A stretch of 36,493 nt of DNA. It comes from a virus. Lineage: Duplodnaviria; Heunggongvirae; Uroviricota; Caudoviricetes. The translations under genes and the position numbers were made by a program. The stretch is taken from the IMG/VR virus record IMGVR_UViG_2563366937_000005, positions 1 through 36,493 of that record. One strand, written 5' to 3'. Of this stretch, positions 1,331 to 17,904 are shown in pieces (within the stretch, counting starts at the first letter, position 1; each line of letters opens with the position of its first letter). The notes below the pieces were generated by a model. That model saw nothing but the letters and a program-made list of their open reading frames with translations, was not told the DNA's origin and did not search any database.

Positions 1331-1377
1331 TCCACCGTGATTCACGTTCGTGAACATGTCCTTTCAGGGCCGATATA

Positions 1378-1453
1378 GCTCAGTTGGTAGAGCAGCGCAT
1401 TCGTAATGCGAAGGTCGTAGGTTCGACTCCTATTATCGGCACCATTAAAATCA
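1378..1453 (+). tRNA. thrW: tRNA-Thr (anticodon CGT), thrW; 3' end carries the prophage attL core
   Basis: 76-nt sequence GCCGATATAGCTCAGTTGGTAGAGCAGCGCATTCGTAATGCGAAGGTCGTAGGTTCGACTCCTATTATCGGCACCA folds as a cloverleaf: 7-bp acceptor stem GCCGATA/TATCGGC, anticodon loop TTCGTAA, T-loop TTCGACT, 3' CCA encoded. The integrase gene stops 6 nt downstream. Confidence 0.9.
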
Positions 1454-1458
1454 ATAAG

Positions 1459-2622
1459 TTACACATCATTAGTACCTTCCTTATTTTTTGACTGGGACAA
1501 ATTTGGGACCGATGGGTTCAGGATCGAGTCTATTTGCCGTGCGTGTTCGGTAAGGTGATTAGGTGCAAGGTGAGCATATCGACGAACCATTTCGATAGAC
1601 TCCCAGCCTCCCATTTCCTGTAACACTGACAAAGGGACTCCGGCTTGAACCAGCCAACTTGCCCAGGTGTGTCTCAAGTCGTGAAATCTGAAATCATCAA
1701 TACCAGCCCGTCTCAGCGCCGCTTTCCAGGCTGTGTTTGCGTCATACCGCATCTTCCTTACTGTTGGCGCTTTCGTTCCGTCTGGTTTGGTACAGCTTTC
1801 CTTGTACACAAATACCCAACGGTGATGATTCCCGATTTGTTTTTTCAATACGCGACATGCAGTATCATTCAGCGCAACGCCAATTGCGCGGTTTGATTTA
1901 CTCTCTTCCGGGTTTATCCATGCCACCCGGCGCTGCATATCTATTTGTTGCCATTCAAGGTTGATGATGTTCGAGCGTCTTAAGCCTGTTGCCAGTGCAA
2001 ATTCAACAACAGACTTTAATGGCTCCGGACATTCATCAATCAGCCTTTGTGCTTCATGGGGCTCCAGCCAGCGGATCCGTTTATTCTTTGGTTGAGGCAC
2101 TTTAATAATTGGTGCCTTATCCAGCATTTTCCATTCACGCTCTGCGGCTCTTAGTAGGGCCTTTATAAATGAAAGATGCGTAGCCTTCGTTGCAACGGAC
2201 GCTGGTTTTGGCGTGTATTCTGGAACAGGTTTCCCTTTTTTTCTGCATGCTTCTGCCCTGAGTTTCCAGTTTTCCTCATGACGCCGGTTCGTCATTTTCT
2301 GCATTGCTGAATAAATTTTTGATTCAGTAATGTCTCTTAGTTGCATTCCTGCGAAATGTTGAAGCCAGAATCCGATCCGGCTTTTGTCATCGTCCAGTGA
2401 TTTTTTATGTGCTTTCTCTTCAAGCCACCTGACACAAGCTTCCTCGAACGTTATATCAGGTATTTCACCAAGTTTGCTGACCCGCCATGCTTCAGCCTTT
2501 AGCTTGTCATGGAGTTCTGTCGCCTGCCTTTTGTCCTTTGTTCCAAGAGACTGTTTAAATCTTTTACCGTTCGGCAATGTGAAACTGGCGTACCATATTT
2601 CACCTCTGCGGAAGAGTGACAT
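1459..2622 (-). CDS. int: Tyrosine site-specific integrase, P22 Int-like (thrW-specific)
   Basis: 387-aa ORF adjacent and convergent to thrW; C-terminal catalytic region with the R...HDLRHT...Y pattern ([25 protein letters not shown]...RRYAHL). P22-family integrases are known to use thrW as attB. Confidence 0.9.
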
Positions 2623-5424: not shown

Positions 5425-5984
5425 TTTGCTGCTCCTCATCATATCGACCCTGCAAGGTCGGTTAGTTTCTCCACAAAACAGAGAAGAACACCTGCGGTGG
5501 CAGCCGCCCGGATGGATTGGGTTATGAGCCCGTCGTCCGGTGATGCTCTTCTCTGTTTTGTAAAAAGAGCGGTACCAGCCGGAAGCAAGGGTACAAACTG
5601 GTACCGCCAGGACTACACACAGCATAAAGTTGTGGTGCCGGGTGCCTCCCGGTGCCTGGCGAAGGTTGCACACCAGGCGGGTGGGTATCCACAGAAGGTC
5701 GACTGTCAGCCTCAACCTTAACCCGCGTGCGCTGAGCCGCATTCACCACAACGCTAAGAATTCTCTCTGGTTGAAAATACTTAGCTGTTATGTGCCTGCT
5801 TTTAGCCACATCAGGCGAGGTGGACCTGGTTATTCCCCAACAACAAGGATTCGGTTAATCTGGTTATCCCCAACAACAAAAGGATTTTTTTTATGAAGTG
5901 CAATGGCTATGAAGAGCGGCACATGCCTCCTTACAAGAGGCCAGAACCACCGCCAAAACCTGATGATTCAGACTGAGGTGAAAC
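5425..5984. promoter_or_regulatory. Large structured GC-rich non-coding region between divergent early genes; probably holds the leftward early promoter/leader
   Basis: No convincing ORF (the track ORFs here are Pro/Gly/Arg-rich low-complexity); 15-bp near-perfect inverted repeat caaaacagagaagaa (about 5473-5487) / ttcttctctgttttg (about 5548-5562); several further GC stems (ggtaccag/ctggtacc, ccggg/cccgg, cctgg/ccagg); two direct repeats at 5826-5885. Confidence 0.5.
5826..5885. repeat. Two direct repeats CTGGTTATyCCCCAACAACAA(A)GGAT about 34 bp apart, followed by a T8 run
   Basis: Read directly at 5826-5850 and 5860-5885, just upstream of the plus-strand gene at 5985; candidate regulator binding sites. 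Confidence 0.5.
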
Positions 5985-12746: not shown

Positions 12747-12763
12747 TTTTGTGGAGAAAGTTG

Positions 12764-13108
12764 ATGCGTGATATGTATGAAGTTTTAGACCGCTGGGGAG
12801 CGTGGGCTGCAGCAGATAACAGTGGTGTGGACTGGCAGCCGATAGCAGCAGGCTTTAAGGGGCTTTTACCTCATGGTAAAAAAATACGCCTTCAGTGTGA
12901 TGATGATGAAGGCATCATGATAGACGGCTGTGTTGCCCGCTTGTGTAAGTATAAACCAGACGAATATGAGCTGATCATTGCTCACTTCGTTATAGGTATT
13001 TCACTGCGTTCTATTGCGAAGAGACGCAGATGCTCAGATGGAACAATCCGGAAGCAATTGCAGACTGCGTTAGGTTTCATTAATGGGGTTATGTACATGC
13101 TCAAGTAA
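12764..13108 (+). CDS. Late-gene antiterminator Q (QuuD-like)
   Basis: Start at ATG 12764 (GGAG plus 7-nt spacer); MRDMYEVLDRWGAWAA...IAAGFKGL...CDDDEGIMIDGCVARL...CSDGTIRKQLQTALGFINGVM parallels DLP12 QuuD (VLERWGAWAA...IAAGFKGL...CCDDDAMIICGCMARL...CSDGYIGKRLQKAEGIIEGM, from memory). Confidence 0.75.
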   Translation: MRDMYEVLDRWGAWAAADNSGVDWQPIAAGFKGLLPHGKKIRLQCDDDEGIMIDGCVARLCKYKPDEYELIIAHFVIGISLRSIAKRRRCSDGTIRKQLQTALGFINGVMYMLK

Positions 13109-14327
13109 TATTTGGCATTAATTTAAATAAAATACCGATGATGCCTATGAATGTAGGCATCCATGCTAGTGATAATAAACTGTCAAGCACCTTATGACAA
13201 AAATCCTCATTGTCATTTAATTTTTTAATAGCCTCTTCTAAGCTCTCTTTAAGATCGCTGGTGTCATCCTTTATTCTATATCTTAATTGTCCAAAAAGTA
13301 TTTCTTTAGAGTGTGAAATACGAGCGAGTTGTTTTTTTTGTGACACAATCATTGCAGATGTTATTATTGCTGTGATAATCAATCCAATTAAAGCAATAAT
13401 CCAATCAGTTTTTGTTGTTAATTTGAAAATAGCAATTGAACCAGCTAGTGAAATAGGTATTGCAAGAGCTTTGTTAGAAATTTCTGAAATTATTTTTGAC
13501 AGTTTTTCTGAGTAATCGAGTTCAGCATCAACAACTTCTTTCCTTGCTTTATGAAAAGAAAATGCCGACATATAAGCAGCTAAGTTGTTCGTATAAAGTT
13601 CGCATATGAAATCCCACTTGTTAATTAACTCGACAAAGGAATTTCCATTTTTATTAACATACTCAATAACTGTGTTTCTGAAAGTGTTAATCTTTTCAAT
13701 GTGATGGGCATCAGTAGTAGCTTCACTACTTACTAATGTTTTAACTAACTGAGTATTTACTGTTTTATCATTAAAAATTTCTTCTGTAATATTTGTTTCA
13801 ATTACAGCAGAAGAAGATTTAGACTCTGAGTTTAAAATAAAGACTAAACGATAAAATGTACCTTTGCTATCTTTTTTTATATCATGGAAATGAGCAAGCA
13901 TGGAAAGAGCATTGATTAGCTCACAAATGTCCTCAATTTTTTGGATATAAGAAGGTTTTGGTGTTTCTAATGAATAGAAATCATCCTCTATAATATAGAA
14001 ATACTCTGGCATTATGCCTTTCTTGAGCGTGTTTATTTTTACAAACTCGTTTTTATTTTTATAAAAACGATTCGCACTTCCTTGTGAAATTTTAAACGAG
14101 TATGTAAGAAAATTTCCCTTTTCAGGAAAGTCTTCATAATCATAAATTAAATGACCATCCACCTCTATTTCGTCAGCTGTACCAGCTTGAAAAGTAGGGT
14201 TCAAAATTCTTTTGAACAATGATTTTACGTCTGCATTATAAGCTATACGCGCAGAAAACTTAGCCCCGTCAAAATGAGGATAGCTTGATAATCTATACAG
14301 ATTAACTATTATACTAAAATCATTCAT
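13101..14327 (-). CDS. Hypothetical 408-aa protein with two C-terminal transmembrane helices (second gene of the AT-rich cassette; candidate membrane effector)
   Basis: ATG at 14327 overlaps the upstream gene stop (ATGA); about 285-aa soluble N-terminal region with no motif I recognise; hydrophobic helices LAIPISLAGSIAIFKL...WIIALIGLIITAIITSAMIV and LLSLAWMPTFIGIIGILFKLM; 3' end overlaps the convergent Q stop by 8 nt; strongly AT-rich. Confidence 0.6.
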   Translation of the reverse strand: MNDFSIIVNLYRLSSYPHFDGAKFSARIAYNADVKSLFKRILNPTFQAGTADEIEVDGHLIYDYEDFPEKGNFLTYSFKISQGSANRFYKNKNEFVKINTLKKGIMPEYFYIIEDDFYSLETPKPSYIQKIEDICELINALSMLAHFHDIKKDSKGTFYRLVFILNSESKSSSAVIETNITEEIFNDKTVNTQLVKTLVSSEATTDAHHIEKINTFRNTVIEYVNKNGNSFVELINKWDFICELYTNNLAAYMSAFSFHKARKEVVDAELDYSEKLSKIISEISNKALAIPISLAGSIAIFKLTTKTDWIIALIGLIITAIITSAMIVSQKKQLARISHSKEILFGQLRYRIKDDTSDLKESLEEAIKKLNDNEDFCHKVLDSLLSLAWMPTFIGIIGILFKLMPNIT

Positions 14328-15472
14328 TCTTTATCTTCTTCATTACTCGGGTTATCAGTTTCTTTCAACGCTCTTCTTATCTTAGTTAATGCTTCAACAG
14401 GCAAATTATTAAATGTTAGGCTTTGGTTTTCGTCATCATAATATATTTTAGCATCAGTTGTGACACCGAGTAAATCCTTGTCGAAGTGAAAGCTCAATGA
14501 TGGGGTTTTATATATCACATTGCGGATTTTATCTAAGGAGTTTTTATTGATTACGAACTCTGATGGGATTCTGACTTCCTCACTATTGAGGTGTTTCATT
14601 AATTTATCAACAAGTTCTGTTTTTTCTTCCTCTTTTAAATCGGACATATGGCCTGAAGCAAGCGATTCGATATCAGAAAGCCTTGCAGAGTGCTCGTTGT
14701 CAAATTGCTTTTCTAAGTATTTGATAACATCATTTCTAAATGACTCTGCTTGATTTTTTAAAAGAGGTTCTTTCTTAAAGAAACGCCTTATTTCATCTGG
14801 TAACTTACGGGTTGCACCTGCTGAAGCAATCCCCTTGTCACATCCTAATGCTGCTATAAAATATGCTGCCGCTGACTGTCCCGTAGTTTTGCTTATAAAG
14901 CTTAGATAACTTAAGTCTGTTTTTTTTAAGTCATCTGCTTTTTGGTATTCTTCATAATATCTGAAATTTATTTTTGCTGCTTGGTTAATATTGCCAAGTT
15001 CTAAGTGAATCATTTCCTCTGGCTCTAAATTTTCACTAATAGTTACGCCATTAGTTTTTTTGATCATTGTAACCAATAGATAACGGAAACCAGATAAAAT
15101 ATAATCAGTAAAAACAACATATCCTCCAGAAGCCCAAATCTGCTCTTGAGCAGATTTATACATTTGTTTCATAACTTCCTTCGATAATTCAATGAAATCA
15201 CTTGAAACAGATTGTTGAACTAAAGAGTATTTATGAAATAGTTCTGGTATAGGGCCTTGCTTTGTTTTATTTTTAATAAAAACACCATAATGCGCTGAGT
15301 TCCCTTTTGAACCATACAAATCAATAACACCGTCTACTAATTTTTTTACTATATCATTTGTTTTATCTAGTTCTGTATCACGAAGATTGTATGGTTTGGA
15401 GTGATCGAAGTCTTTATTAGATTCTTTTAAGAGCTCATGAACGATTACGTGGCGTATGCTTACTTTGCTCAT
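14324..15472 (-). CDS. NdpA/YejK-like nucleoid-associated protein homologue (NA37 family) (first gene of the AT-rich cassette)
   Basis: Start probably at the second ATG ([14 protein letters not shown], compare YejK MSLDINQIALHQL); the track ORF begins 18 nt upstream at 15490. Similarity to YejK along the whole length, e.g. [22 protein letters not shown] vs [36 protein letters not shown] vs [32 protein letters not shown] vs RYLTFLKGRVGRKVADFF, C-terminal [18 protein letters not shown] vs LTIKGTPPNLRDQLQRR (YejK from memory). Confidence 0.6.
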   Translation of the reverse strand: [382 protein letters not shown]

Positions 15473-15506
15473 TTTTTTGGTCAATTCCATGCGGTTAAGC
15501 TAACAA

Positions 15507-15556
15507 TTGTAAAGAGCATAATAAATTACTAACGCGTACGCAAAAACTATCATAAT
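15507..15556 (+). promoter_or_regulatory. Candidate late promoter (P_R'-like) upstream of the lysis cassette; the same interval probably also holds the divergent promoter of the minus-strand cassette
   Basis: -35-like TTACTA (15526-15531), 16-nt spacer, -10-like TATCAT (15548-15553) / CATAAT (15551-15556); followed about 35 nt downstream by an intrinsic terminator hairpin. Hexamer assignment is tentative. Confidence 0.3.
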
Positions 15557-15588
15557 CTGTTAAGAGTGGTTACTTCGCCACACAGCTT

Positions 15589-15620
15589 AAACCCGCGTCG
15601 AGCGGGTTTTGTCGTTTCTG
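15589..15620 (+). terminator. tR'-like intrinsic terminator between the candidate late promoter and the holin gene (expected target of Q antitermination)
   Basis: Stem aaacccgc/gcgggttt with 5-nt loop gtcga, followed by a TGTCGTTTCT U-rich tract. Confidence 0.4.
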
Positions 15621-15761: not shown

Positions 15762-16088
15762 ATGCCTCATAACCCAAATACCTGGTTGGAGTTGGTCCAG
15801 AGCTGGTGGCGTGGAGACACACCGTTGGGCGCAGTGATTATGTCGATTGTTATGGCTGGCTTGCGCATTGCATATTTTGGCGGTGGTGGGGGCTGGAAAC
15901 GAAAAACGCTCGAGATTTTGCTCTGTGGTGCTCTGACGCTGACTTTTGCATCCGCTCTTGAGTATGTCGGATGGCCTAAATCTCTTTCTGTTGCCATTGG
16001 TGGTGGCGTTGGGTTGATCGGTGTCGATGCTATTCGTGGGGCTGCAATGAGAGTAATCGGTAATAAGTTTGGTGGTTCTAAGGAGTAA
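15762..16088 (+). CDS. Holin (lambda S-like class I topology)
   Basis: 108 aa, three hydrophobic segments, Gly-rich turn (YFGGGGGWKRK), charged C-terminus; immediately upstream of the endolysin. Confidence 0.6.
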   Translation: MPHNPNTWLELVQSWWRGDTPLGAVIMSIVMAGLRIAYFGGGGGWKRKTLEILLCGALTLTFASALEYVGWPKSLSVAIGGGVGLIGVDAIRGAAMRVIGNKFGGSKE

Positions 16089-17101: not shown

Positions 17102-17466
17102 CTCGAGTTATATTTTTCATTATCAGTGCGAATGCGCCTAATAAAGCTGTGTATTATGATAATTTTATAAAACTTATGGGCTTAAATTCAGACGCCAGCG
17201 TTTTTATAGTGTAATGTAGCAGCTTACATAAAATATGCATCGTGATTAACTATTAGTCCAACCTTTTGGACCAATATGAAAGTGGAAGTTTGTACAAATC
17301 GTTTGTAGATGATTAAACATGTGTCTAGTAGAGCTAGTCATGAACAGGTTTATTACGTATCATTTTGTTTAGATTATCGAGAGTACAACTAGTAGAGCAG
17401 CTAATCTTTAGATAGTGCCAGTGATGTTCACTTACGATAAACTAACCTTTTCATTCAGTGGAGGTT

Positions 17467-17904
17467 ATGATGTGGCATACATTACTTAACTGGCCTTGGG
17501 GAACTGTGTGGTCAGCTGTATCGGCTTTAGGTTCAATTGTAACTGTTACATTAGGTTTTTGGGCAATGAATGTTTGGCGGCGACAGGAGGCTCTGAAGGC
17601 CAAAATGGCTCTGAAAATGGCAGTGGCTGATTATTCAAATGCATTATCACAGCTACCTTTATCTCTTAGTCGTAATGTTCGTATTGAAAAAAGGGCCGAG
17701 CTACGAGAGTTAAGCCATAAATTAAATGCTATTAATAATGCTTTTTTGATATGCGAACATATGTTGGAAAAATACCCACGTGTAAACAGCGGTTGTCGTT
17801 CTTTATCTGTTGCCCACAAAGAATATATTAGAATGAGAGATAATAGTATTCAGGCGAAATATATTTGTCATAATATTCTTTCAGAACAGTTTGTATTCAA
17901 ATGA
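17467..17904 (+). CDS. Hypothetical single-pass membrane protein (about 145 aa) in an AT-rich moron between the lysis and packaging modules
   Basis: GGAGG directly upstream of tandem ATGs (the track ORF starts at GTG 17458); N-terminal TM helix (WGTVWSAVSALGSIVTVTLGFWAM); preceded by a 356-bp AT-rich non-coding region. Confidence 0.45.
   Translation: MMWHTLLNWPWGTVWSAVSALGSIVTVTLGFWAMNVWRRQEALKAKMALKMAVADYSNALSQLPLSLSRNVRIEKRAELRELSHKLNAINNAFLICEHMLEKYPRVNSGCRSLSVAHKEYIRMRDNSIQAKYICHNILSEQFVFK

Follow-up and report, generated by a model that had tools for sequence, protein, structure and literature searches.

Here we report a two-gene cassette in an Escherichia coli lambdoid prophage that is likely to serve in defence against other phages. 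The cassette lies in a 36,493-nucleotide stretch of tailed-phage DNA (IMG/VR record IMGVR_UViG_2563366937_000005, positions 1 to 36,493; this whole stretch is referred to below as the window), and our main subject, the target, is its downstream gene, which encodes a membrane protein of 408 amino acids (aa). We consider it likely that the two genes form an anti-phage module of the DS-1 / type II PANGU kind carried by the prophage, and that the target supplies its effector, paired with a nucleoid-associated protein (NAP) of the NA37/YejK type. Systems of this kind were described in 2025-2026 and the target had already been flagged computationally; judged from its sequence, it is most likely a divergent member. 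We document here the gene structure, the computed topology, the acidic N-terminal domain, the synteny, the slot context and the distant homology to DS-1. The cassette consists of the following elements:

14324-15490, minus strand: partner gene, NA37/YejK-like nucleoid-associated protein, 388 aa from the ATG at 15490 (Pfam NA37, PF04245, 2.3e-50).
14324-14327, minus strand: ATGA overlap of the NA37 stop codon (TGA) and the target ATG, read directly in the sequence.
13101-14327, minus strand: target gene, DS-1B / Pag2B-like membrane protein, 408 aa, identical to WP_016159279.1.

The target open reading frame (ORF) is a real gene, and a chance origin can be set aside. At the gene's own composition (31% G+C) the probability of meeting no stop over 408 codons is ~9e-16, and the 409 codons observed compare with a longest ORF of 148 codons in 500 shuffles of the 2.39-kb cassette. 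An initial annotation of the window, made from the sequence alone, had placed a 408-aa ORF at 13101-14327; these coordinates are exact, with an ATG start on the minus strand, and the start is conserved, as the alignments of homologues begin at Met1. The same annotation had suggested translational coupling to the NA37-like gene, and the gene overlap underlying that suggestion was confirmed by the shared ATGA. An antisense ORF of 101 codons (13210-13515, plus strand) was treated as a chance occurrence.

The link to known defence genes is provided by DS-1 (DS-1A, WP_000355468.1; DS-1B, WP_000150292.1; NCBIfam NF053868 and NF053869), which comes from the DefensePredictor study and consists of a YejK-domain protein and a 404-aa protein with two predicted transmembrane (TM) helices (Science 2026, PMC13092281). 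DS-1 is among the validated and replicated defence systems of that study, the YejK domain being newly validated in defence, and its Table S10 lists WP_016159279.1 itself among the predicted novel defense genes, at a machine-learning log-odds of 13.05 (PMC13092281). The target matches NCBIfam DS1_2_antiphage (NF053869) at 1.5e-28 and 100 bits over residues 86-397, and is aligned with DS-1B by BLASTP at 22% identity over residues 185-405 (8e-11). Comparing the profile of the target family with DS-1B by hhalign gave a probability of 96.5% over columns 92-322, extending into the alpha/beta domain. The partner matches DS1_1_antiphage at 2.6e-28 (99.1 bits) and is 24% identical to DS-1A by BLASTP (9e-11). 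By these alignments the target is a DS-1 homologue that stops short of equivalog status.

The partner is present in RefSeq as WP_224691776.1, annotated as a nucleoid-associated protein, and aligns over its full length with YejK in PDB entry 9be2 (3.4e-15). Its NCBIfam scores lie below the equivalog cut-offs both for YejK (134.8 bits, cut-off 341) and for DS1_1, and a match to DrmC in PADLOC-DB 2023 was rejected as being at chance level only. The start of this gene is ambiguous, the ATG at 15490 giving 388 aa and the RefSeq ATG at 15472 giving 382 aa; homologue alignments start at residues 1-12, mostly 4-7, and a clear Shine-Dalgarno sequence was found at neither ATG.

The target protein can be divided as follows, with residue numbers translated into window coordinates:

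13713-14327, minus strand: residues 1-205, alpha/beta domain, predicted to be cytoplasmic, without a recognisable fold.
13470-13712, minus strand: residues 206-286, helical region including a 50-residue stalk helix at 238-287 (predicted secondary structure, invariant columns).
13341-13469, minus strand: residues 287-329, TM hairpin made of TM1 (287-302), the loop KLTTKTD and TM2 (309-329) (hydropathy, family charge and conservation).
13179-13340, minus strand: residues 330-383, charged helical linker, predicted to be cytoplasmic.
13119-13178, minus strand: residues 384-403, third C-terminal TM helix (TM3).

Two C-terminal TM helices separated by a short basic loop had been proposed in the initial annotation; hydropathy instead gives three, at 287-302, 309-329 and 384-403. 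On the Kyte-Doolittle scale (19-residue window) the second is strong (2.76), the third reaches 1.94 and the first is marginal in the target (1.6). The three hydrophobic segments are conserved throughout an alignment of 190 full-length relatives, which is the source of the family charge and conservation figures given here. TM3 carries W389 and P391, the latter kept in 98% of the family. The short loop exists, as the KLTTKTD that joins segments 1 and 2, but on family average it is acidic rather than basic (mean K+R 0.38 vs D+E 1.24). Between segments 2 and 3 there is a charged helical linker of 54 residues that was absent from the earlier description, and both of its ends are basic on family average, with K+R 3.03 vs D+E 1.31 in the stretch after TM2 and K+R 2.87 vs D+E 1.93 in the stretch before TM3. 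According to the positive-inside rule, basic segments flanking TM helices face the cytoplasm. An N-in topology is thus predicted for the target, because the TM1-TM2 loop is acidic and basic stretches follow TM2 and precede TM3; the N-terminal domain (N-domain), stalk and linker would be cytoplasmic, and the TM1-TM2 loop and the C-terminus would lie outside. Residues 1-285, on the side predicted to be cytoplasmic, carry a net negative charge in every one of the 190 relatives (190/190), with a mean of -12.6 and a value of -8 in the target.

An AF2 model of the full-length protein, built on 34 homologues, has a predicted local distance difference test (pLDDT) score of 85.2 and shows an alpha/beta domain at ~1-180 followed by helices 207-227 and 238-287, the latter being the 50-residue stalk. 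TM1 then occupies 289-302, a helix at 306-351 comprises TM2 and an extension of it, and a further helix (358-388) precedes TM3 at 390-403. The most conserved motif of the family, NNLAxYMSAFSFHKARKE (residues 247-264), falls in the helical region. Positions conserved at 85% or more belong mainly to the aromatic and hydrophobic core, with the addition of K286, P291, S293, Q330 and P391, and of these P291 and S293 are conserved within TM1. No catalytic-type signature persists across the 190-member alignment. The AHFHD motif (144-149) was considered as a metal- or HD-like family signature and rejected, since neither H146 nor D149 reaches 85% conservation in the alignment; the motif is invariant among Enterobacterales relatives only.

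That the first ~285 residues hold no recognisable motif, as the initial annotation had stated, was borne out by the absence of a significant Pfam family or fold relative. A Pfam scan of the target returned nothing significant (best E 0.032, below threshold), a search of the PDB with the family profile gave chance-level matches only (best YbgF, E 0.06), Foldseek of the full-length model against the PDB gave nothing with E <0.1, and the model of the N-domain alone has no structural relative in the PDB. Neither a toxSYNTH nor another enzymatic domain was detected in the target with Pfam, NCBIfam or the N-domain model search. The PHROG search placed the target in phrog_5023, the function of which is unassigned there (7.5e-139).

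Relatives of the target are numerous and nearly uniform in size. An exhaustive profile search, counted as representatives of 50% identity clusters, recovered 1014 with a threshold of E<=0.001 and 199 with one of E<=1e-30; almost all have 400-430 aa and are matched end to end. The members with a named source belong to Enterobacterales, Pseudoalteromonas, Pseudomonas and Xanthomonas, each of them annotated as hypothetical. The loci compared for synteny were the window itself, Pectobacterium, Serratia, Klebsiella and metagenome contigs, 11 Enterobacterales genomes, Pseudomonas knackmussii and an integrase island; in every locus with complete upstream DNA an NA37 gene stands immediately upstream, the two genes being separated by up to 35 nt or overlapping by up to 8 nt. 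One distant copy adjoins an integrase, an MmeI-type restriction enzyme and a Schlafen-like ATPase, and another adjoins a HipA-like kinase. Over 13 loci the two proteins diverge in a correlated manner (r = 0.94), with the membrane protein diverging faster (mean identity 42% vs 57% for NA37), which fits co-evolution of the pair. In the phage collection the cassette DNA had no megablast match, and a protein-level search found one phage, the temperate Klebsiella phage P7641, with the pair at the same position.

The pair also appears to be decaying in some copies. Both genes are frameshifted in Shigella flexneri (locus L014, 2851-5180) and in a Pantoea symbiont (locus L021, 2864-5089), and in a Serratia marcescens prophage (locus L004, 4866-5999) NA37 is split into two ORFs with the membrane gene intact.

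A model for the action of such a pair is offered by type II PANGU, which is composed of a YejK-like nucleoid protein, Pag2A, and of Pag2B, which combines an acidic, DNA-mimicking (DMK) domain at its N-terminus with a TM part at its C-terminus (bioRxiv 10.64898/2026.04.06.716658). According to the same preprint, both genes of PANGU-Ecu are required against T4 and neither is toxic alone, the Pag2B N-domain binds Pag2A with a dissociation constant (KD) of 19 nM, and a fusion of Pag2A to green fluorescent protein (Pag2A-GFP) leaves the nucleoid upon T4 infection and turns diffuse in the cytoplasm; the system is described as sensing phage-induced chromosome degradation through its nucleoid protein, and its phenotype as abortive-infection-like. 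If what is reported for the published systems can be transferred, the YejK-like partner would reside on the nucleoid of the uninfected cell. The 408-aa protein would meanwhile lie idle in the inner membrane, anchored, as the computed topology predicts, by the hairpin and the C-terminal TM helix, with its acidic N-domain, stalk helix and 330-383 linker facing the cytoplasm. A superinfecting phage that degrades or remodels the chromosome would release the nucleoid protein, again as reported for the published systems; by analogy, the released protein may then bind the acidic N-domain, and binding may lead the membrane module to permeabilise or depolarise the membrane, so that the infection is aborted. 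The prophage would gain from this in that its lysogen is shielded from competitors. An abortive-infection effector had also been suggested in the initial annotation, and this idea stands in so far as the protein is membrane-anchored, paired with NA37 and homologous to DS-1; the membrane disruption that formed part of it is a step that we infer.

A more specific version of this mechanism, which we offer tentatively and think rather unlikely, is a pore gated by the NAP. Binding of the released YejK-like protein to the N-domain would drive the assembly of an oligomeric alpha-helical pore; the N-domain would be more than a simple DNA mimic, and the stalk, the linker and the three Pro-containing TM helices would assemble, giving an architecture reminiscent of CorA or ClyA and unrelated to both.

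A number of points weigh against reading the target as the effector of a defence module of the DS-1 / type II PANGU kind. Where the equivalog cut-offs stand at 315 bits for DS1_2 and 330 bits for DS1_1, the target scores 100 bits and the partner 99.1 bits, so that neither attains the score set for its family; no model in PADLOC-DB 2023 matches the target, and DefensePredictor assigned target and DS-1B to different clusters (PMC13092281). The partner is also without the zinc ribbon of DS-1A, its NA37 domain starting at residue 16, whereas that of DS-1A spans 42-382 behind a CxxC...CxxC N-terminus. The N-domain of the target is only mildly acidic, its charge of -8 being spread across 285 residues and lower in magnitude than the family mean, and the likeness to Pag2B of PANGU-Ecu is one of described architecture. 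Correlated divergence may be produced by the shared descent of a linked pair alone. The defence role of the clade to which the target belongs is a matter of prediction and homology, and for type II PANGU itself the activation of Pag2B by Pag2A, as well as the action of Pag2B, were left to be determined (bioRxiv 10.64898/2026.04.06.716658).

The alternative that fares best is one in which the cell survives. In non-abortive superinfection exclusion, or in tethering, NA37 would be recruited to the inner membrane, where incoming phage DNA is trapped or blocked, or where prophage or host DNA is tethered. Such a role would suit a DNA-binding partner that is always co-encoded and an N-domain that faces the cytoplasm, as would the position of the cassette in a moron slot of the prophage, of the sort that typically houses exclusion genes, and the failure of Pfam and the N-domain structure search to detect a toxic or enzymatic domain. 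We nevertheless regard it as improbable: type II PANGU is abortive-like, and its nucleoid protein becomes diffuse rather than gathering at entry sites (bioRxiv 10.64898/2026.04.06.716658). The cassette could also be read as a toxin-antitoxin or addiction module that stabilises the prophage, the membrane protein being a constitutive toxin and NA37 its antitoxin. The tight operon of two overlapping genes, the mobility of the module and the frameshifts in one or both genes of several copies are compatible with this. However, the genes of PANGU-Ecu are singly non-toxic and its nucleoid protein is an activator (bioRxiv 10.64898/2026.04.06.716658), and NA37, at 382-388 aa, is a full nucleoid-protein homologue unlike the small labile antitoxins, which makes addiction a very improbable explanation.

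The setting of the cassette accords with its being prophage cargo. To its left the window encodes RusA, KilA-N, DUF968 and the antiterminator Q, and to its right a lambda-family holin, a GH24 endolysin, Rz/Rz1, HNH, terminase, portal and tail genes. The cassette has a G+C content of 31-34% vs ~55% in its flanks, and is transcribed opposite to the flanking phage genes. Its borders are marked by the following features:

12749-13108, plus strand: antiterminator Q, convergent with the target, the stop regions overlapping by 8 bp (Pfam Phage_antitermQ, 5e-44).
15491-15560, minus strand: upstream region of the cassette, with a weak promoter candidate, TTGCGT (15543-15538), 17 nt, TATGCT (15520-15515), read by eye and offered as inference only.
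15589-15609, plus strand: terminator-like hairpin and T run in the interval between cassette and holin.
15762-16088, plus strand: lambda-family holin, right border of the cargo slot (Pfam Phage_holin_3_1, 5.7e-25).

The hairpin at 15589-15609 is probably a tR'-like element, and homology to sibling prophages picks up again at ~15519-15532. The stretch 15519-15620 (plus strand) resembles a late promoter plus tR'-type terminator module; if it is one, the insertion of the cassette would have separated the Q gene from the site at which Q acts. A promoter consensus scan found no minus-strand site upstream of the cassette, and promoter-like sites were not enriched in the region (12 found vs 11.9 expected). 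No direct or inverted repeats that might mark an insertion were found flanking the cassette, and no Rfam family matches within it.

An identical cassette is carried by E. coli GPEC1405, its target gene encoding WP_016159279.1, which is annotated as a hypothetical protein, and its partner gene WP_224691776.1. At an identity of at least 99% the cassette is present in 30 of 5426 complete E. coli genomes, in all of them on the chromosome and adjoining Q. Sibling prophages with the holin region in common (loci L022-L025) carry other antisense cargo between Q and holin: a cytosine methyltransferase with a MAE_28990-type HEPN nuclease and a DUF262 protein, a KAP-family NTPase, or a TIGR04255 protein with two hypothetical proteins. 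The Q-holin slot (13101-15560 in the window) is therefore a variable site for antisense cargo that is rich in defence-type genes. It is also the position of the Shiga toxin genes in Shiga toxin (Stx) phages. The same setting bears on the idea that the pair is an accessory of lysis or of the late programme, for instance a holin- or antiholin-like timing factor. The pair does adjoin the lysis cassette in several genera, and the PHROG search gave a holin match, although a weak one without significance (E 0.098), but the pair is transcribed opposite to the late genes, sibling prophages with unrelated cargo in the slot lyse without it, it is found outside lysis contexts also, and the membrane protein is always coupled to a nucleoid protein; we consider such a function highly unlikely.

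Elsewhere in the window, a tRNA-Thr(CGT) gene (1369-1444, plus strand) is followed directly by an integrase-sized ORF (1459-2622, minus strand), an arrangement that probably represents the prophage's left attachment end. What looks like a second cargo slot is found between Rz/Rz1 and HNH/terminase, where a low-GC patch (~36%) holds a 148-aa ORF with an N-terminal hydrophobic helix (17458-17904, plus strand). This ORF belongs to PHROG 6169, with function unassigned there, and has no Pfam, NCBIfam or PADLOC match; siblings carry a DUF6236 protein, or ClpP and a hypothetical protein, at this position. An Rfam match to the STnc100 small RNA (5560-5782, minus strand) barely reaches the gathering score (47.2 vs 47 bits) and overlaps the 5' part of a 226-aa ORF of PHROG 204, function unassigned.

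Phage sensing based on nucleoid proteins was described only in 2025-2026. Our analysis adds the three-helix anatomy and topology of the target, an N-domain without a known fold, the size of the family, its strict synteny and its preferred location between Q and holin, and it brings one further example of defence-type cargo to this slot in lambdoid prophages. The cassette is an intact, compact, phage-borne example from E. coli with a large alignment, a confident model and a defined topology, and as such offers a handy second test of the principle beyond the one or two operons that have been assayed. The pore gated by the NAP, if true, would supply a mechanism for the type II PANGU / DS-1 effector and define a new family of regulated pores.

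The target could also be taken for a housekeeping ion channel or transporter, CorA-like or of another type, whose cytoplasmic domain is regulatory. The overall layout of a cytoplasmic domain, long helices and C-terminal TM helices is similar, but this reading is scarcely credible, as Foldseek gives CorA an E of 0.3 and a TM-score of ~0.2 with high rmsd, the isolated N-domain model has no CorA match, the GMN motif is absent from the TM1-TM2 loop of the target and the distribution is of the mobile-element type. Housekeeping YejK (PDB 9be2) resembles the partner along its full length, in agreement with the full-length Pfam NA37 domain of the latter; the partner differs in being a divergent, prophage-encoded paralogue that is always paired with the membrane protein. 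In type I PANGU (Pag1A with Pag1B, a GRel toxSAS) the sensor logic is the same, a YejK-like protein binding the acidic domain of the effector, but Pag1B is a soluble alarmone synthetase whereas the target has no enzymatic domain.

DS-1 and type II PANGU come nearer. The DS-1 operon likewise has two genes, a YejK/NA37-like gene and directly downstream one for a ~400-aa protein, and DS-1B shares with the target an acidic N-terminal region (-9, compared with -8), C-terminal hydrophobic helices and the motif KAL(A/T)IP at the start of TM1. In contrast, identities between the DS-1 proteins and the target and partner are 22-25%, scores are about one third of the equivalog cut-offs, and the partner scores closer to housekeeping YejK than to DS1_1; a tblastn search of the phage collection with DS-1B found no match, whereas the clade of the target is phage-borne. 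Type II PANGU, the tested example of which comes from E. coli, has the same bicistronic arrangement of a YejK-like nucleoid protein and a protein with an acidic N-terminal and a C-terminal TM part. The preprint gives it a TM domain without the anatomy of three helices and a linker found in the target. Wide distribution and horizontal spread are reported for type II PANGU, in line with a target family that has more than 1000 cluster representatives.

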